DNA of 64,000 nucleotides from a bacterium. Lineage in GTDB: Bacteria > Hinthialibacterota > Hinthialibacteria > Hinthialibacterales > Hinthialibacteraceae. The position numbers and the translations under genes were made by a program. The stretch's first letter is position 1; each line of letters begins with the position of its first letter. A model generated the notes under the pieces. It saw only the letters and a list, made by a program, of their open reading frames with translations. It was not told the DNA's origin and searched no databases. This document shows positions 27,705 to 56,253 of the stretch, piece by piece. The stretch spans positions 1,600,001-1,664,000 of the forward strand of contig CAXXMV010000006.1 in NCBI GenBank assembly GCA_963662285.2. The letters run 5' to 3'.

Positions 27705-27777
<73 letters not shown>

Positions 27778-48555: not shown

Positions 48556-50952
48556 TTATCTCAAAAGATCAAGAAACATGTTGTTATACAAGTTATTGGC
48601 TTGAGATTGAACATTGATATTGCTTTGCAGAAGCATCTGGTTCAATGAGTTCCGGGTTGATTCTCTGGCGAAGTCGGCATCCATAATTCTTGATCGGGAT
48701 GCAAGTAGATTTTCAGAAGCGACGGATAAATTATTGGCGGTCGCTTCGAGCCGGTTGGTGACGGCGCCAATTTCTCCGCGCGTCTGGTTAACTTGTTCCA
48801 TGGCCTGATCAACAATAGCCAGCGCTTCATCAACGCCGCCTGCTTCAGTTATGTCAATATCATTGAGCGACCGGCCTTTTCCTAAACCTAATGATCCAGG
48901 GCGTACGTCGCCAAACCTCATGCCCATTCGATCTCCGGCGTTGGCGCCAATCTGGAAATTGGCCTCCCGGCTTACAGCGGATATGACTACAGTGCTGAAT
49001 GCTCCCTCGCCCGCATCGGGGACATTGACGTTGGCGTCAAAATCAAGCGTTAGCGTTTCACCCTGACGGATGCCATTGTTAAATGTTACATCCTGCGCGC
49101 CCGCTCCAAACCGGACATTGGGACCGCCATTAAGGGAACCGCTGAACTCTTCGCGGGTAACGTTAATTTCATCAGTTCCATTGCTGAGGTTATCGCCCAT
49201 ACGTAAGGTTATCTGTGAAGCGCCTGCGCCGTTTGAATCGCCGGGGCGTCCATAGAGAGTGGCATTTTCGCCAGCCCTAACTCGTTGCGCCGGGCCGCCA
49301 TTTACCCTTACCGTGGCTTGTTGATCGTTGCCTGCTGTTACGGTGTTGGCTGAATCTGAAATTGTGGCGAAGGTTCCACCTCCGGCGGAGCGGTCGTTAA
49401 CCGTGATGTTGAAATTGGATTGTGATGTTCCGGCGACGTCATCCACCAGTTGAAGGTTGCCGCCGGATGTCAACCGGGCGGTGGCGTCTTCAAAGCCGCT
49501 TTGTCTGCCAATGCCTCCAGCGGCGTTGGTGCGGTCACGAACATTCAGTTCGTCAACCAGGTCTTGTATGGTTACAGCTGCGCCGTTGCCCGCTGACCCA
49601 TCAACATTGGATACGGTTATGGTATTGGTGAAGGTTGATCCATCGGCGTTGGTTCCATTGATGCTGATAGTATCGCCTTGAGCCAGGGTTGCGCCATTGA
49701 ATACTGAACCGATCAGGTTGGTTGTTAAATCCGCTGCTCCTCCGCCAGCTTGTTGGAAGGAGACGTTGCTTTCAACTACCCGCGCCTGGGCTTGGGTGAC
49801 ATCGGAAACCTCTATGGTCAGCGTTCCGGTATCGAAGGTATTGCCCGTGATGGCGGTGACGGCGTTGCCCACCTGGGCGCCGGTAGCTGCGCCGCCGATT
49901 TCTGCGGCGCGGGTGGTTGCGGTTGTATTTTGAACTCGGTTATTTGCATCAAGGGATGTGAAATTTACATTGAAATCAGAAACTCCAGTCACCGCGCCGT
50001 TGGAGAACTCCATGCGTCCAGTAGTTGCGTTGAATGAAACGTTGGTTTCAGCCGCATTGGTTCCAGCGGCGCTATTGACGCCTTGTTCCATTTCGGCGGC
50101 GTCAATCGATGCTTGGATGGCATCGGCCAGACTGGTTCCGGCGCCTCCACCTCCGGCGATATCTGATCCCGCGGATATTTGGAATGAACCGGAAAATTCC
50201 GTCACGCCATCAGCCAACACGCCGCTGAAGGCAATAGTTCCACCAGCCTGGAGCGCCGCTCCGTTGAATGTCACATTGGTAAGGTTCTCACCAGCAGCTG
50301 CGGCGCCGGTTCCATCATCGAAGGTTCCCTGAGTGACGGCGATATCCTGTTGATTTTGGATTCCGGCGTTGATTGTTGCCGCGCCGGGATCATTTCCGCT
50401 GACAATAGTAGCTGAACCTTCCTGGACGCGGGTGATATTGAAAAAGTTTTCCCGTGTGGTCAGGTCGCTATCATCAACATTAACTCCCATATCGGGGGTT
50501 CCCGGACGGATTCCGGCGCTTGAATCGAAATCACCATTTAAGAGAGTATTGGATCCGAATTGAGTAGTATTGGCGATGCGGCCTATTTCATCAACATATT
50601 GATTAATCTCTAATTGAATGGCTTGTTGAGCGCTTTGATCCAATACTCCGGTATTGCCGGATTGAACCACTAACTCACGTATACGCTGGAGGTTTTGGTT
50701 GACCGTATCGAGCGATGAATCAGCCACATTGGCCAGATTTATACCGGTTTGAGTGGCATCGAAAGCTTCTCCTAATCCTCGAAACTGGCTGTTAAGCCGA
50801 TTGGCGATGCTCAGACCAGCTGCATCGTCACCCGCCTGATTGATGCGAAGACCTGAGGTGAGGCGATTCATATTGGTGTTGATAGAACGGTTGAGACCAA
50901 TAAGGTTTTGAATAGAAGATAATGAACTTAGGTTGTTGTTGATACTAGTCAT
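48556..50952 (-). CDS. Large flagellin (798 aa)
   Basis: N-term RLTSGLRINQAGDDAAGLSI, IANTTQFG..LLNG; C-term RGEIGA..NRLE..ENL.ASRSRIMDADFARE..QAN. Confidence 0.92.
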   Translation of the reverse strand: MTSINNNLSSLSSIQNLIGLNRSINTNMNRLTSGLRINQAGDDAAGLSIANRLNSQFRGLGEAFDATQTGINLANVADSSLDTVNQNLQRIRELVVQSGNTGVLDQSAQQAIQLEINQYVDEIGRIANTTQFGSNTLLNGDFDSSAGIRPGTPDMGVNVDDSDLTTRENFFNITRVQEGSATIVSGNDPGAATINAGIQNQQDIAVTQGTFDDGTGAAAAGENLTNVTFNGAALQAGGTIAFSGVLADGVTEFSGSFQISAGSDIAGGGGAGTSLADAIQASIDAAEMEQGVNSAAGTNAAETNVSFNATTGRMEFSNGAVTGVSDFNVNFTSLDANNRVQNTTATTRAAEIGGAATGAQVGNAVTAITGNTFDTGTLTIEVSDVTQAQARVVESNVSFQQAGGGAADLTTNLIGSVFNGATLAQGDTISINGTNADGSTFTNTITVSNVDGSAGNGAAVTIQDLVDELNVRDRTNAAGGIGRQSGFEDATARLTSGGNLQLVDDVAGTSQSNFNITVNDRSAGGGTFATISDSANTVTAGNDQQATVRVNGGPAQRVRAGENATLYGRPGDSNGAGASQITLRMGDNLSNGTDEINVTREEFSGSLNGGPNVRFGAGAQDVTFNNGIRQGETLTLDFDANVNVPDAGEGAFSTVVISAVSREANFQIGANAGDRMGMRFGDVRPGSLGLGKGRSLNDIDITEAGGVDEALAIVDQAMEQVNQTRGEIGAVTNRLEATANNLSVASENLLASRSRIMDADFARESTRNSLNQMLLQSNINVQSQANNLYNNMFLDLLR

Positions 50953-51101: not shown

Positions 51102-53441
51102 TCATGGAAGATCTAACAGGATTTGCAATACTGCTTGCGGCATAGAGTTAGCTTGCGCCAACACTGCGCTTTGCGCTTGCAACATAACAGTATTTAAGGC
51201 TAATTCTGTAGTTTCCTGTGCTATATCAGCGCTGACAATGCTGGTATGTGCGTTCTCAATGTCTAATGAGGCTAAATCGAGAGTTTCTATTGCATCGTCC
51301 AGGCGGGAAGCAAAAGCGCCTAATCTGGCGCTGAAACCATTAACTTGTTCCAGGGCGTCATCAATTATAGTCAAGGCGGCGGTAGCGCCAGATGCGGTAG
51401 TCACATTTATGCTGTCTAAATTATTAGTTGAGTTGCTTCCTAAGTTTTCTGAACGCAAGTCAGCAAAGATGAATAATTTCTGGCTGTTGGAATCTTTGCC
51501 GATTTGGAAATTAACTGCATTGCTGGTGGTTGAGAGAACGAACGTTTCACCCCCCGATGATGCAAGGGTTGTGGCATCCAGGATGGAATCGAAATCAAGT
51601 GTAACCTGTTGGAATTTCTTAATGGGGTAAATAGAAGCTTGACCGGCGGTGAATTGCACTGCCTGGTCTCCATTTTGGAATGTGACTATTTCGCCGCCAT
51701 TCAAACTACCGACAAACTCTTTGGCGGAAGTCTCCAATTGATCATCGCCTGCAGCGAGTCCCGTGCCTAACCTGATAGTAACTTCCGGATTTGGACCGCC
51801 GGATAGATTAACGCCTTCCAGAGTTACAACTTGCCCGGCATCGACCTGCTGCGCCGCGCCTCCATCAATTGAAACGGTAGCTTTTTCTCTGGAGCCTGCC
51901 GCATCAACTGTAGAATTTACGGTTTGGCCTCCAGCGCTCACAATTATTTGCAGATTGGTTGTTGAATCTTTTCCAATATCATCAATTAATTGAATTTCAC
52001 CTGCGCCGGTTAGAGTGGCGATGGCGCCGTTAAATCCCCGGCTGGTCAGGCTTTGATCCCGGTTGTTTAATTCTTTAATTAAACCGGAATATGTTTCAAT
52101 AATTCCATCTCCGACGCCTGTATCGAATCCGACGGTGTAAGTAGTAGTAAAGGTGCTGCCATCAGATTCCGTGCCATTGATTTGGAAAGTACTGCCCATG
52201 ACGATAGATACGCCATTGAGCAACGAGTCGCTTAAACTGGTGGTATTGAATACAGGTCCGCCGCCATTACGGTCAAAATTGTTGCTGGTAGTAATTTGCC
52301 GTCTCTGCTCAGCGATAATATTACTTACCGTAATATCGAAGGTTCCTGAGTCAAAGGTTGAACCTGTTATGGCGGTTACGCTATTACCAATCAGAGCTTC
52401 AGATATCGTTCCCCCTACTTCCTGGTTATAAATGTTGGTTGCTCTATCGATATCAAAAGTAGTTCGAATAGTTCCCGCCGAATTTCTGACGGCGAAATCG
52501 ATATCGAATTCGGAAATGTTCTGGTCTGTTCCACTGTTGAACTCTAATCGTCCGTTGGCGGTAAGAGCAACGTTTGTTTCCAGTACACCGGTTCCTTCAA
52601 TACCGATATCGTTTTCTGCGGCGTTTATGGAAGCCTGTATGGTATTAATAAGGGTAGTTACGGTGTTTCCTGCCATGACGGATAGCGTACCGCTGAAAAA
52701 AGTGGTTCCATCAGCCAAGACGCCGGAGAAGGTAATATAGTCCATCGAATTTAAGGTAACCCGGTTCATCGAGGTTGCAGCTAAATTGTTGCCGCCAACC
52801 GCCGCGATTCCACCATTAATTAATTGTCCTGTCGACACGGCGATATCGGTAGCGGCGGAAATTCCGGTATGGAAGGTTCCGTCGCCTGCGTCTTTAATTT
52901 CAGTGGTTCCTGAGTCGGTTACGCCGATATTTAAGTATGAACGTCCCGAAAGTAAACTGGTTGCATTGGGACCGAATGATAAACTGGCGCCAAAGTCGCG
53001 CGTACCGCTTTTGAAATTTACGTCGGTGGTTAATGATCCGTTGAGCAGAAATTTATTGCCGAATTTGGTTGTGTTGGCGATTTCATTTAAGGCTTCAATT
53101 TTCTCCTGGATAACGGCCTGTTGGGCGCCGCTTCCACCTGCCGCGGCAACGGCGGCAACACGGATATCATTTAATAGACTAACAATCTGATCAGTTGCGC
53201 TTGAAGCAGTAGCAGTTAAGTTAATAGCTTCCTGGGTATTTTCGGATGCCCGGCTGAGACCACGGAATTGTGTTTCCAGTTGATTACTAAGAATATATCC
53301 GCCAGGATCATCTTTGGCGCTCTTGATGCGAAGCCCTGAACTGATCCTTTCTAGATTAGTCGCGATTCGATTGTCTGTATTATTTAGCCGTCCAATTATT
53401 TGTAAGGCGCTGATATTAGTGCGGATACTTTCAATAACCAT
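51102..53441 (-). CDS. Large flagellin (779 aa), paralog of the adjacent gene
   Basis: RISSGLRIKSAKDDPGG, IANTTKFG..LLNG; C-term ARLGAF..RL, SADIAQE, VLAQANSMPQAVL. Confidence 0.9.
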   Translation of the reverse strand: MVIESIRTNISALQIIGRLNNTDNRIATNLERISSGLRIKSAKDDPGGYILSNQLETQFRGLSRASENTQEAINLTATASSATDQIVSLLNDIRVAAVAAAGGSGAQQAVIQEKIEALNEIANTTKFGNKFLLNGSLTTDVNFKSGTRDFGASLSFGPNATSLLSGRSYLNIGVTDSGTTEIKDAGDGTFHTGISAATDIAVSTGQLINGGIAAVGGNNLAATSMNRVTLNSMDYITFSGVLADGTTFFSGTLSVMAGNTVTTLINTIQASINAAENDIGIEGTGVLETNVALTANGRLEFNSGTDQNISEFDIDFAVRNSAGTIRTTFDIDRATNIYNQEVGGTISEALIGNSVTAITGSTFDSGTFDITVSNIIAEQRRQITTSNNFDRNGGGPVFNTTSLSDSLLNGVSIVMGSTFQINGTESDGSTFTTTYTVGFDTGVGDGIIETYSGLIKELNNRDQSLTSRGFNGAIATLTGAGEIQLIDDIGKDSTTNLQIIVSAGGQTVNSTVDAAGSREKATVSIDGGAAQQVDAGQVVTLEGVNLSGGPNPEVTIRLGTGLAAGDDQLETSAKEFVGSLNGGEIVTFQNGDQAVQFTAGQASIYPIKKFQQVTLDFDSILDATTLASSGGETFVLSTTSNAVNFQIGKDSNSQKLFIFADLRSENLGSNSTNNLDSINVTTASGATAALTIIDDALEQVNGFSARLGAFASRLDDAIETLDLASLDIENAHTSIVSADIAQETTELALNTVMLQAQSAVLAQANSMPQAVLQILLDLP

Positions 53442-53496
53442 GATCGTTCTCCCACAATAGGTTTGAAAAAACTTAGGTAAAAAGAGAACTTTTTAC

Positions 53497-53523
53497 TAAA
53501 GTTTTTGATAAATTTGCCTATAA
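53497..53523 (+). promoter_or_regulatory. Sigma-28 (FliA/SigD)-type promoter pointing away from the flagellin gene
   Basis: TAAAGTTT-N11-GCCTATAA versus consensus TAAAGTTT-N11-GCCGATAA. Confidence 0.65.
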
Positions 53524-53524
53524 T

Positions 53525-53694
53525 GAGAGAAGAGCATTTCTCATAAGATTTCATATGAAATCAGAGAACGGCTTAAAAAAGGCTATAAAACAGGCGTAGC
53601 GCCTGCGGACCTCGTCTGCACGTGCTGCGGCGGTCAATTAAGTCATAACTCTCACTTCTCTTGGCCGGGATGCGAAGTTATGACTTAATTTTTT
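53525..53694. ncRNA. Candidate structured RNA, motif copy 1
   Basis: GAGAGAAGA...GACCTC...CTGCGGCGGTCAA...CTCACTTC..TTGGCCGGGATGCGAAGTTA; several hairpins; ends in a 15-bp inverted repeat plus T-run. Confidence 0.55.
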
Positions 53695-53805
53695 AAGAAC
53701 TATATTTTCTACCGCAATTTATCTTCTCTCATCACATTTCTTTATTAATAACGCATTGGAGATGTGCTTATAAAAAGCATCTCCAGACGCGATGTTTTTC
53801 GTTAC

Positions 53806-54010
53806 GTTCCTATCGTTGTCGTCGAAGGGCCTCGGAGATCTTCAACGACTGGCCAAAATTGGCGTAAGTTCCTTACATTGAAACAAACATTTCCTTACAG
53901 ACATAATCTATGGTCTGCGGCGGTCAGGATAAGCATCTTTCAGCCGGGATATTATAAATATATATATTTATAATATCCCGGTTAAACACGCCAATTTTAC
54001 AACAGGAACG
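53806..54010. ncRNA. Candidate structured RNA, motif copy 2 (divergent, multibranched)
   Basis: CTGCGGCGGTCA 53915-53926 ... GCCGGGAT 53943-53950; long-range pair AAAATTGGCGT/ACGCCAATTTT; 38-bp palindrome. Confidence 0.45.
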
Positions 54011-54030
54011 CAAATATTTTTTGTTCTATC

Positions 54031-54184
54031 AGAGAGAAGACGGACGGTTTTCCACTGGAGGGAAAGGCGCCGTTCCCGCTGACCTCATCATTTGTCTCTT
54101 TCATTGCTGCGACGGTCAATTAAACCATGCTCACTTCACGAAAAACTTCTCGTTGGCCGGGATGCGAAGTTACTGCTTTTTTTT
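54031..54184. ncRNA. Candidate structured RNA, motif copy 3
   Basis: Same ordered blocks as copy 1, including the identical 20-mer TTGGCCGGGATGCGAAGTTA (54153-54172); ends in T8. Confidence 0.55.
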
Positions 54185-54246
54185 AAATTCACTTTGAATA
54201 AATATACACCTCGATGAAAAGGTACTTTTCAAACTGTTCGTCATAT

Positions 54247-54274
54247 GTATCGGCATGACTTTAGAAAAACTTTA
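54247..54274 (-). promoter_or_regulatory. Sigma-28 (FliA/SigD)-type promoter facing the flagellin genes, ~800 bp upstream
   Basis: Minus strand TAAAGTTT-N12-GCCGATAC (TAAA-N16-GCCGATA). Confidence 0.7.
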
Positions 54275-54506
54275 GCTATTTTTTTTAATTTTTTCTAAAA
54301 AAAATAAAAAAATCTATTTATTAATAATAGATGTAAAAAAATGATTGACATTACCGATAATATCTGTTGTAATGTAATGTTCATTTTTCTATTTGTATGT
54401 AATGATATGATATGTACTAATAAATAATATAGTTAAATAGAATGTTTTGTTATAAATTTATAGAGTTATTTATTGAATTAATACTTTTAGAGAGCATGGA
54501 TTGTCA

Positions 54507-54890
54507 ATGCGTAAAACAGCGTTAGTGGTCGATGATGAACCAATTCCACGTACTTTTGTCTCTCATATCTTAAAATCCTTAGGATTTTTCGTTATTGAGG
54601 CCGATTCAGAGGAAAGCGCATGGGATAGTTTCGTCGAGAATGAAGAGGAATTGGATTATATAATTACCGAGATACATCTGGTAAGAGGTTCTGGACTAAA
54701 TTTATATCAAAGAATCAGGGACCGAAGCAAAAATAAGACGATAGTAGTATGTGATGATTGTTATGTTAACAATCATCAAGAAGTAATGGATGATCCCAAC
54801 GCAGTGCTGCTGGTTAAACCTTTTCCCGTGGACACCTTAATTGAGACTACCAATTTTACCAAACATAATAATAAAATAATATCAAGCTGA
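54507..54890 (+). CDS. Single-domain (CheY-like) response regulator with atypical phosphoacceptor
   Basis: ALVVDDE, LDYIITEIHL (D->E), SGL.LY..IR, LVKPF. Confidence 0.85.
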   Translation: MRKTALVVDDEPIPRTFVSHILKSLGFFVIEADSEESAWDSFVENEEELDYIITEIHLVRGSGLNLYQRIRDRSKNKTIVVCDDCYVNNHQEVMDDPNAVLLVKPFPVDTLIETTNFTKHNNKIISS

Positions 54891-54993
54891 TATTGAAATT
54901 TTCCTCCGTTATATCATTGAATTATTTCAAAACTATCCTGGTCATATTAAATATTGCTTAACAATTATTCCAAATAGTATTCGGTGAATATCA

Positions 54994-56253
54994 ATGCTCA
55001 CAGAAAAACAGATAAACATTGGTCGGCGCAATTTCATTAAGATGGTTTCTGCGTTGCCCGCAATTGGCTTGTTCGATTATTCAGCGCTTGATATGGAACC
55101 GGTCAAAGTAGCTTTGATCGGCGCTGGCGGAATCGGACTTGATCATATAAAGAAATTTGATCCTAAATATATTCAAGTAAAAGCGGTCTGCGATATCCGA
55201 CCCGGAGCGCAGGATAAAGCGCTGCATCTCCTTAAAAAAGAGCATGATATGCAAGCTGACGCCTACGCTGATTATAAAGATGCGCTAAAGCGGGATGATA
55301 TTGAGGCGGTGATTATTGGAACGCCTCTTTGGACTCACGCCCCAATCGCCATTGACGCCCTTAATGCCGGGAAACACGTATTTTGCGAAAAGATGATGGC
55401 TAAAACAGTTGAACAATGCCAGGCCATGATCGACGCCGCCGATAGTAATAAACGCATTTTGCAAATCGGTTACCAGCGTTTTTACAGTAAATTGTATCAA
55501 GATGCCTACCAATTGATACGTAACGGGCTTCTGGGCGATATCTATTACATCCGCACCTCATGGCATCTCAGCGGAGGGCGGAAACGTACTATTGAGGGCA
55601 GGGATAAGCGCGACATGGAAAAAGGTTTATTATCCCCCACCAAATATGGCTACCAGGACCTCGAACATCTGATTAACTGGCGTATGTATTGGAAATATTC
55701 TGAAGGATACGCCGCTGAATTGTTAAGCCATCAAACCGCTGTCACCAATTGGGTATATGACGCTGAACCCACATCAGTTATGGGAATGGGCGGAACCTAT
55801 ATATATAAGAATGACCGGGAAATCGAAGACCATTTTTATTGCACCTTCGGCTACCCGAACGGCCGCACGGTAACCAGTTCCATGATTCTTTCCAACGATT
55901 TTGAGCCGACTGGTGAAGTGATTATGGGTACAGAAGGAATACTGTATCTGATTGGATCATATCAGGCCTACCTGTTTCTACGCCAAGGCAAATCCAATTG
56001 GAAATACGCAGAGATTGATACTATAGCTAAAGACTTATCCAATAAACTTGATGTCAATAATTTACCTGATAAGAAAGTTGAACCAGTTAATTACGGTTCT
56101 GATGATTCATATAAAACAGAGTTCAGGGGATTCGCCAACGCCATTCGTAAAGACGGGCCGGTATTAAGCGGGGGCAGGGAAGGAATGGCGGCGGCCAAGG
56201 CCATCATCGCCGCTAATCGATCCATCAAATCCCGTCAAGCGGTTGAAATCTAG
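54994..56253 (+). CDS. Tat-exported Gfo/Idh/MocA oxidoreductase
   Basis: GRRNFIK, IGAGGIG, TPLWTH, HVFCEKMMA, LQIGYQR, NWRMYWKYS. Confidence 0.92.
   Translation: MLTEKQINIGRRNFIKMVSALPAIGLFDYSALDMEPVKVALIGAGGIGLDHIKKFDPKYIQVKAVCDIRPGAQDKALHLLKKEHDMQADAYADYKDALKRDDIEAVIIGTPLWTHAPIAIDALNAGKHVFCEKMMAKTVEQCQAMIDAADSNKRILQIGYQRFYSKLYQDAYQLIRNGLLGDIYYIRTSWHLSGGRKRTIEGRDKRDMEKGLLSPTKYGYQDLEHLINWRMYWKYSEGYAAELLSHQTAVTNWVYDAEPTSVMGMGGTYIYKNDREIEDHFYCTFGYPNGRTVTSSMILSNDFEPTGEVIMGTEGILYLIGSYQAYLFLRQGKSNWKYAEIDTIAKDLSNKLDVNNLPDKKVEPVNYGSDDSYKTEFRGFANAIRKDGPVLSGGREGMAAAKAIIAANRSIKSRQAVEI

Follow-up and report, generated by a model that had tools for sequence, protein, structure and literature searches.

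An uncatalogued family of predicted small RNA genes lying antisense to a probable flagellin leader in the Hinthialibacteraceae and sister families

Repeat units beside a flagellin gene pair

We analysed a 64,000-nt stretch of DNA (hereafter the window; G000:C6:1600001–1664000) from an assembly of the bacterial family Hinthialibacteraceae (GCA_963662285.2, contig CAXXMV010000006.1), whose genome, here G000, comprises 7,286,025 bases (7.29 Mb) in 8 contigs at ~44% G+C. The subject is a set of repeats in a 1,059-nt intergenic region of the window (53442–54500), which a first-pass annotation had described as three tandem copies of a new structured, non-coding motif tied to the flagellar system. 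The region is bordered by a flagellin gene pair and a receiver-domain gene:

48556–50952, minus strand: second flagellin gene of the pair (Pfam Flagellin_N and Flagellin_C)
51102–53441, minus strand: first flagellin gene of the pair, 779 aa (Pfam Flagellin_N and Flagellin_C)
54501–54890, plus strand: single-domain response-regulator gene (stand-alone receiver domain, CheY-like; Pfam)

Reading the window and running a repeat finder over it returned every block that had been named, each at its reported position: CTGCG[G/A]CGGTCA starts at 53625, 53915, and 54107; GAGAGAAGA lies at 53525 and 54032; GACCTC at 53608 and 54081; CTCACTTC at 53651 and 54130; an identical 20-mer, TTGGCCGGGATGCGAAGTTA, at 53661 and 54153; and a perfect 15-nt inverted repeat at 53636–53650/53676–53690. 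T-runs are present 3′ of copy 1 (53689–53694) and copy 3 (54177–54184) and absent 3′ of copy 2. The genome contains four exact matches to the 12-mer CTGCGRCGGTCA and two to the 14-mer GCCGGGATGCGAAG; because three of the four 12-mers and both 14-mers fall at this one locus, the repeat set exceeds chance. The fourth 12-mer lies in apparent coding sequence (read by eye, without a frame check), and the other genomic near-matches that were read also look like coding sequence by eye. A dispersed repeat or mobile element was considered and ruled out, the motifs being confined to one locus in the genome. Scored against a covariance model built from 20 relatives (R1), copy 1 reaches 102 bits (53589–53694, plus strand), while copy 2 reaches 12.9 bits (E 0.65) and copy 3 gives a 28-nt partial match of 13.4 bits. 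Thus, the repeated blocks are real, but in place of three equivalent copies there are one good family member and two degenerate paralogues.

A search of 52500–55500 against Rfam 15 at E ≤ 10 gave only chance microRNA and snoRNA matches, far below gathering scores, on an AT-rich palindrome in copy 2; at gathering scores, the sole match in the whole 64-kb window is a tRNA at 27705–27777. A literature search on the motif strings returned unrelated papers only. A blastn search with 53500–54200 against 40 related genomes recovered a core of ~53622–53696 at 74–93% identity in 17 of the 19 same-family genomes (f1) and in all six genomes of two sister families (f2 and f3), that is, in 23 of the 25 other genomes of the order, and in none of nine genomes from other families of the class and none of six outgroups. 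Relatives usually hold two or three same-strand copies spaced 300–500 nt apart, and a profile search of 23 fetched loci plus the window gave 53 matches at E ≤ 0.01. Among 35 genomes from the phylum, this one counted, model R1 identifies the family in 24 (17/19, 4/4, and 2/2 by family inside the order, with this genome separate), and in 0 of 9 genomes outside the order. All 35 genomes encode flagellin and CsrA. In all 24 carrying genomes the RNA adjoins a flagellin-like gene, as checked with Pfam in the window and in relative G006 and as judged from N-terminal sequences elsewhere.

In a public sequence collection, a stricter motif pattern is found in 16 stretches, all from uncultured-bacterium records, and a loose pattern gives, among the matches listed, mostly chance matches in GC-rich genomes. 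The public records that carry the motif are metagenome-assembled genomes of uncultured organisms titled "Candidatus Omnitrophota bacterium", "uncultured bacterium", or "bacterium". One diverged copy of the RNA, at L192:3451–3549 (contig G010:C12; 39 bits, with its own U-run), has no flagellin neighbour; it lies beside an 804-aa D5_N/DUF5906 primase-like gene and may be carried by a mobile element.

The first-pass annotation had proposed an Rfam search and a covariance-model search of related genomes as checks: the former matches no family at permissive or gathering thresholds, and the latter recovers a family with strong covariation. Absence from Rfam and covariation across relatives bear out the description as a new non-coding structured motif, and the flagellin neighbour in 24 of 24 genomes, together with a sigma-28-type promoter described below, bears out the tie to the flagellar system. 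We conclude that the repeats are a previously uncatalogued family of predicted small non-coding RNA genes.

Structure, covariation, and strand

Copy 1, hereafter unit a, is divided as follows:

53531–53694, plus strand: predicted small RNA (sRNA) unit a, ~165 nt (R1 score of 102 bits at 53589–53694; minimum free energy; covariation)
upstream of P0/P1, plus strand: variable 5′ hairpin region of unit a
53595–53629, plus strand: conserved 5′ hairpin P0/P1
53636–53650/53676–53690, plus strand: terminator hairpin P2, a perfect inverted repeat
53651–53675, plus strand: apical loop of P2, with near-invariant UUGGCCGGGAUGC (GGA at 53668–53670) and CU-rich CACUUCUCUU before it
53689–53694, plus strand: U-run of unit a

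The conserved unit spans ~106 nt and comprises the 5′ hairpin P0/P1, a linker, the terminator hairpin P2, and the U-run. In P0, CGUAGC is paired with GCUGCG and encloses the variable hairpin P1; the linker reads GCGGUC(G/A), with a GGUC core; and P2 has a stem of 13–15 bp and a loop of ~25 nt, UCACUUCUCUUGGCCGGGAUGCGAA. All 20 aligned a copies fold singly into this structure, at about −43 to −55 kcal/mol. In a MAFFT alignment of these copies, 87.7% of cells are paired and 15 of the 29 pairs change on both sides, compared with 5.8 double-change pairs in shuffles of the alignment, none of 500 of which reaches the observed number. In an alignment of 38 copies, which was fitted to the covariance model and hence leans towards the structure, 88.5% of cells are paired versus 27–45% with partners slid by one to three columns, and 25 of 29 pairs change on both sides (reached by 0 of 500 shuffles). 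Double changes seen by eye include CGUGGU/ACCACG and CACAGC/GCUGUG in P0 and CCAUUAG/CUAAUGG in P2. A U-rich tail follows the covarying 13–15-bp P2 in 20 of 20 aligned a copies, and 15 of them end in a six-U run. The modelled structure is that of a stand-alone sRNA with an intrinsic terminator; a simple terminator scan missed P2 because its loop limit was 8 nt.

The 15-bp inverted repeat had been read as the competing arm of a switch; it is instead the conserved, covarying terminator hairpin, and no conserved alternative pairing accompanies it. Neither does the proposed CGGUCAA/UUGGCCG pairing stand: both sides are almost invariant and show no covariation, and the pairing is unused in minimum-energy folds. 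As an intramolecular pseudoknot it looks sterically unlikely in the model, because the 13–15-bp stem begins right after the linker. Two further candidates were rejected: pairing of a 5′ GAGAGAAG block with the loop sequence CUUCUCU, in which the 5′ block differs in some genera and the loop is constant; and a small peptide, for which the variable 5′ part offers a 14-codon ATG frame with no Shine–Dalgarno (SD) sequence in a stretch that is unconserved by eye.

The strand had been left undecided; for the predicted sRNA's 5′ hairpin, promoter, and terminator it can now be set as plus, because a U·G pair is kept, the fold is better, and the U-run and an upstream sigma-28-type promoter lie on that strand. 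Specifically, P0/P1 in 41 distinct sense rows has 69 G·U versus 16 A·C cells (summed per-pair counts), and the conserved U·G pair, which would be a C·A mismatch on the other strand, is kept in 33 of 39 rows. From its inferred start to the U-run, unit a has a minimum free energy of −63.2 kcal/mol (z −7.15) on the plus strand and −53.0 kcal/mol (z −4.66) on the minus strand, a difference of 10 kcal/mol in favour of plus. P2 itself is balanced, with 19 G·U versus 24 A·C cells (summed per-pair counts).

Copies 2 and 3 retain parts of this design:

53802–54013, plus strand: composite middle unit (copy 2; inverted repeats, folding, recurrence in relatives)
53802–53816/53999–54013, plus strand: closing helix of the middle unit (inverted repeat)
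53818–53849, plus strand: middle-unit hairpin with loop GGGCCUCGGAGAU
53915–53930, plus strand: CUGCGGCGGUCAGGAU, into which the 3′ arm of a small middle-unit hairpin runs
53939–53986, plus strand: AT-rich palindrome with GCCGGGAU (inverted repeat)
54032–54184, plus strand: degenerate unit c (copy 3; alignment with copy 1, partial model match)

The fold of 53890–54016 has a z score of −6.23. CUGCGGCGGUCAGGA(A/U) and GGCCUCGGA keep the same relative place in relatives, the pieces that recur there being GGCCUCGGA(A/U), CCAACAG-hairpin-CUGCGGCGGUCAGGAA, and GGAACGC, and the short hairpin of the middle unit shows a compensatory change (CCGCAG/CUGCGG versus CCACAG/CUGUGG). The palindrome is almost perfect (24 + 24 nt, with GCCGGGAU/AUCCCGGU at its base) and is the source of the chance Rfam microRNA matches. 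A sigma-70-like promoter at 53878–53907 lies inside a conserved middle-unit hairpin and was treated as chance. Unit c consists of GAGAGAAGA, a purine-rich stretch, CUGCGACGGUCA (54107–54118), the 20-mer (54153–54172), and eight U (54177–54184); it keeps the linker, the 20-mer, and the U-run, and the long P2 stem is lost in this genome. Folded alone, copy 3 is no better than shuffles (z +0.97), and better-kept second or third copies exist in relatives. On these alignments, we interpret copies 2 and 3 as degenerate, diverged paralogues of unit a.

Convergent sigma-28-type promoters and the flagellin leader

Two candidate promoters bracket the cluster, and the leader of the first flagellin gene probably reaches into it:

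53497–53523, plus strand: P(+), candidate sigma-28 (FliA)-type promoter, TAAAGTTT, 11 nt, GCCTATAA (pattern, conservation)
54247–54274, minus strand: P(−), convergent candidate sigma-28-type promoter, TAAAGTTT, 12 nt, GCCGATAC (strict genome scan)
53442–53537, minus strand: proximal flagellin leader with a predicted SD-masking helix (minimum-energy folds of 18 loci)

P(+) precedes the core by ~105 nt and GGCGUAG by ~70 nt, and would start transcription at ~53530–53532. Relatives have CTAAAGTTTT...GCCTATAA at the same position, and the sister families have TTAATGTTT...GCCGATAA and CTCAAGTTTTT...GCCTATAA. Pattern matching detects it ahead of the a copy in 21 of 24 loci, and G006 also has it; among the other three loci, contig ends truncate two and the third has a −35 box that has diverged. 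The E. coli FliA promoters listed in PMC4183435 have the same layout, and fliA is encoded in the genome. At the level of motifs, P(+) has what a member of a sigma-28 regulon would be expected to have: TAAAGTTT, a spacer of 11–12 nt, a GCCGATAA-type element, a fixed distance, and conservation. Together with the terminator, P(+) predicts an RNA of ~165 nt, 53531–53694. The strict sigma-28 pattern has nine matches in the whole genome, P(+) and P(−) among them. Two others, outside the window at G000:C6:1039672–1039697 and C2:487208–487233, precede open reading frames (ORFs), one of which, of 114 aa, might encode a FlgM-like anti-sigma factor.

P(−) sits just beyond copy 3, is near-consensus, and would start near 54239. 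A P(−)-like promoter is present shortly past the last copy in 17 of 24 loci; among the seven misses, at least L030 and L036 are cut by contig ends, and L037 has masked (XX) residues in an ORF there. P(−) faces the flagellin start codon, ~800 nt off, through the antisense of unit c, the middle unit, and unit a. Because it does so from beyond the last copy, the flagellin mRNA probably has a leader of ~800 nt that is antisense to the sRNA cluster. A weak terminator-like hairpin with a U-run lies on the minus strand at 53790–53767, between the middle unit and unit a, and could stop part of the P(−) transcripts short of the flagellin gene. The CheY-like receiver-domain gene is a recurrent neighbour past the convergent promoter, in the window and in relatives; it is also Pfam-confirmed in G006, and ORFs with similar N-terminal sequences follow the cluster in several other loci.

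The label riboswitch-like, given to the repeats in the first-pass annotation, implies a leader or attenuator that senses a small molecule and controls the gene downstream. The receiver-domain gene does follow on the plus strand, likewise in G006, with similar ORFs in several loci. We nevertheless consider this reading very improbable, because the terminator is conserved and no downstream gene lies in the same transcription unit: a strong terminator ends unit a, no conserved alternative or anti-terminator pairing is seen, and the convergent promoter, plus an opposite-strand gene in L040 and L043, separates the cluster from the receiver gene. No Rfam riboswitch is matched.

The proximal leader is predicted to fold on itself. 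In particular, the SD region GGGAGAA is paired with an anti-SD arm complementary to both the −10 box of P(+) and the GAGAGAAG block; the window's version of this helix joins UUCUCUCAUUAUAGG to CCUAUUGUGGGAGAA. Minimum-energy folding of 18 loci gives the helix in most cases, with double changes between genera, for example GGCUCUAUCUCAU with AUGAGAGGAGCC. The two arms form a duplex of −13.8 kcal/mol or stronger in 13 of 16 loci, and in several genera both arms have changed; of the three misses, two are f2 loci in which the 24-nt arm cut the helix. Swapping anti-SD arms and SD regions among loci gives a self mean of −17.7 and a cross mean of −14.2 kcal/mol, a test that discriminates weakly because most genomes share similar arms. 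The sequence complementary to the −35 box of P(+) is spanned by an inner leader hairpin, both sides of which vary from genome to genome and which, by eye, has G·U pairs only on the minus strand in three loci. Because the anti-SD helix and the inner hairpin both change on both sides, the models imply that a minus-strand RNA crosses P(+), and they predict that the flagellin ribosome-binding site is hidden in a helix overlapping the sRNA promoter. The GAGAGAAGA block at 53525 is explained as the opposite strand of the anti-SD arm, and the GAGAGAAG block is better explained as the complement of that arm than as a loop partner.

Two rival readings concern the flagellin leader. In one, which we hold to be improbable, the functional elements would reside in the minus-strand leader, for example as decoy SD-like AAGAGAAG loops acting on the anti-SD arm, and the plus-strand transcript would be secondary or a by-product. 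P(−) and the covarying leader helices imply a long leader, and sigma-28-like motifs suggest leaders of ~180–600 nt for other flagellin genes of this genome too. However, the P0/P1 counts given above favour the plus strand, the plus strand has its own conserved promoter and U-runs, and the P2 loop does not co-vary with the anti-SD arm in genera where the arm differs.

The other reading is purely cis-antisense: the RNAs would pair with the complementary flagellin leader through P2 loop–loop contact, with CsrA uninvolved. We judge it unlikely, though less so than the former. The pairing would trigger processing, make converging polymerases interfere with one another, or alter the helix in which the ribosome-binding site is hidden. 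Convergent sigma-28-type promoters bracketing the cluster in 17 of 24 loci fit this reading, as do the balanced G·U and A·C counts of P2, as if it folded on both strands, the overlap of the leader anti-SD arm with the sRNA promoter and 5′ end, and the double changes of the inner hairpin over the −35 box, which point to minus-strand RNA across P(+). Against it, complementarity holds whatever the sequence, so that a near-invariant 13-nt loop across three families is left unexplained; from its inferred start, moreover, the sRNA covers only ~6 nt of the anti-SD arm, and the diverged copy adjoins a primase-like gene, away from any flagellin gene.

The P2 loop, CsrA, and a proposed function

The P2 loop might be a base-pairing seed or a protein site. 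As a seed, the CU-rich CACUUCUCUU would act in trans as an anti-SD sequence on flagellin or late flagellar mRNAs: by hand, UUCUCUU can be paired with GGGAGAA, the SD of the adjacent flagellin gene, and with GGAGAAA, that of the second, and sigma-28-dependent sRNAs that alter flagellin levels are described in PMC10578931 and PMC11187230. But the SDs vary between genomes while the loop is constant, with no compensatory change, and hand pairing to the GGAGGAA-type SDs of other flagellin paralogues is poor; we give this possibility little weight, about as little as the minus-strand leader.

As a protein site, the loop resembles CsrA operators. The genome encodes fliW and csrA as adjacent genes (csrA at G000:C1:77521–77679). 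Three other flagellin leaders carry hairpins, CCGGCAAGGAUGCCGG, UCGGCACGGAUGCCGA, and CUGGCAAGGAUUGCCGG, ~25 nt before a GGA-bearing SD, and the positions of these CsrA-type elements, all outside the window, are:

G000:C2:709329–709341: leader hairpin of the type GGCA[A/C]GGAU(U)GCC
G000:C2:713632–713643: leader hairpin of the same type
G000:C2:650101–650112: leader hairpin of the same type

The arrangement matches that described for CsrA operators and for ligands obtained by SELEX: as given in PMC7652899, the SELEX consensus is RUACARGGAUGU, presented in a six-base loop on a short stem, and operators are arranged likewise. At 10 of 11 positions (our own count), the sRNA loop GGCCGGGAUGC agrees with the leader hairpins listed above, and its core CCGGGAUG matches seven of the eight positions of CARGGAUG. 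The sRNA loop can form GC[CGGGAU]GC, a 2-bp stem with a six-base loop as in SELEX ligands. GGGAU is present in all 38 aligned copies and TGGCCGGGATGC in 33 of them; the two most diverged copies keep GGGAU with changed flanks, GGCAGGGAUGC in G006 and GGUGGGGAUGG in G010:C12. Across 14 loci, GGA occurs 184 times on the plus strand, whereas mononucleotide shuffles average 131 ± 10.5 and none of 1000 gets as high; its complement is unenriched (162 versus 163 expected). The middle unit and purine-rich stretches hold additional GGA, and another flagellin gene has two occurrences of the GGCCUCGGA loop motif in its sense leader. Two ~40-nt tandem repeats (..CUACUGAACUCGUCUGCA.AAAAGGCCUCGGAAACC) at G000:C4:29960–30240, in the long upstream region of another flagellin gene, share the GGCCUCGGA loop motif and the CUCGUCUGCA word with the sRNA locus.

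The reading that we tentatively favour is that these are sigma-28-timed sRNAs that act on flagellin synthesis, with decoy action on CsrA the preferred mode, since a loop kept unchanged in three families calls for a trans partner that is conserved as well, and since this loop copies the local CsrA operator. Specifically, unit a would be transcribed from the sigma-28 (FliA)-type promoter and stop at its own intrinsic terminator, giving a ~165-nt RNA with two stem-loops that lies antisense inside a flagellin-operon leader, itself started at the second, convergent sigma-28-type promoter. The RNAs would act post-transcriptionally on flagellin synthesis: the loop GC[CGGGAU]GC would mimic the GGA hairpins that precede other flagellin ribosome-binding sites and bind the repressor CsrA as a decoy, such that, when sigma-28 is active, the RNAs would draw CsrA off flagellin mRNAs, beside the protein antagonist FliW. 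A probable second action is base pairing with the neighbouring flagellin gene's antisense leader; it would be a near-automatic consequence of both promoters firing and may be the main role. The comparisons establish the family's conservation, structure, and strand, its promoter and terminator motifs, and its gene context; that the RNAs are transcribed, that they bind CsrA, and which way they shift flagellin synthesis we infer from sequence.

Several observations weigh against CsrA decoy action. Each unit has one invariant GGA, the density is ~1 per 54 nt, and the enrichment is 1.4-fold, with a significance that is overstated because the 14 loci are relatives. Such a density is far below that of CsrB-type sponges. 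Minimum-energy folds pair GGGA with an upstream UCUC, which would mask the site, and the CU-rich part of the loop and the GGUC linker are also invariant and are unexplained by CsrA binding. P2 may fold, and hence matter, on both strands. The RNA is absent from nine of nine CsrA-bearing genomes outside the order; with CsrA present in all 35 genomes, the RNA is thus no general requirement of a CsrA circuit. Finally, it is from motifs that the promoters, the ends of the RNA, and the long leader are all deduced.

Known systems share parts of this design. CsrB, CsrC, RsmX, RsmY, and RsmZ of Gammaproteobacteria are likewise, as described in PMC7652899, stand-alone RNAs, often in paralogous copies, with intrinsic terminators and GGA in operator-like loops. 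They differ in showing many GGA where the present family has one invariant GGA per unit, and the absence of an Rfam match at E ≤ 10 indicates no sequence or model similarity; also, the present genes are antisense to a flagellin leader. The Csr and Rsm sRNAs are under BarA–UvrY/GacA control (PMC7652899), whereas the conserved upstream element found here is of sigma-28 type and not one indicating BarA–UvrY/GacS–GacA control, no search having been made for two-component genes. The same source describes an anti-correlation between FliW's presence and the genes that Csr sRNA transcription requires; the host here has FliW. The CsrA–FliW flagellin leaders of B. subtilis hag and C. jejuni flaA, as presented in PMC4894983 and PMC7652899, share the sigma-28/SigD-type promoter, the operator-like GGA hairpin, and the link to flagellin homeostasis, and flaA is described as a dual-function mRNA that also titrates CsrA (PMC4894983). 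Unlike these leaders, the GGA-bearing RNA here is predicted to be a separate, terminated transcript opposite the flagellin strand.

Among sRNAs of the flagellar hierarchy, UhpU, MotR, FliX, and FlgO of E. coli (PMC10578931) and the FliA-dependent CJnc170/FlmR of C. jejuni (PMC11187230) are described as late-flagellar RNAs that change flagellin levels and motility, as proposed here. The E. coli sigma-28 sRNAs are, in that account, derived from untranslated regions, Hfq-associated, and base-pairing, whereas the present family has its own predicted promoter and terminator and tandem paralogues. CJnc180 and CJnc190 of C. jejuni are overlapping convergent transcripts in a flagellum-related setting, as here (PMC8687705); unlike in that pair, one partner here would be a flagellin mRNA leader, and both promoters are of sigma-28 type.

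The family, with 38 aligned copies and strong covariation, is a ready candidate for Rfam, and the locus is compact, with convergent promoters and a flagellin anti-SD arm that overlaps the sRNA promoter. In its fullest form, which we regard as conceivable but rather doubtful, the proposal is that a FliW-bearing lineage also uses sigma-28-timed CsrA RNA decoys within a two-way sigma-28 module, in which one promoter would give the flagellin mRNA with its long, self-masking leader and the facing one would give sRNAs that are antisense to this leader and double as mimics of CsrA operators. Flagellin translation would thereby be governed by three coupled layers: the FliW protein, an RNA acting as a sponge, and a switch of antisense/anti-SD type. 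Sponges for CsrA have been described from Gammaproteobacteria, with FliW serving as antagonist in other bacteria (PMC7652899), and bacteria that have FliW are described as handling CsrA with no RNA antagonist (PMC7652899 and PMC4894983). If the proposed function holds, a new RNA family would join the short list of sRNAs within the flagellar hierarchy, and a sigma-28-timed RNA that copies a CsrA site in a FliW-bearing, uncultured phylum would blur the division between FliW and RNA antagonists of CsrA.

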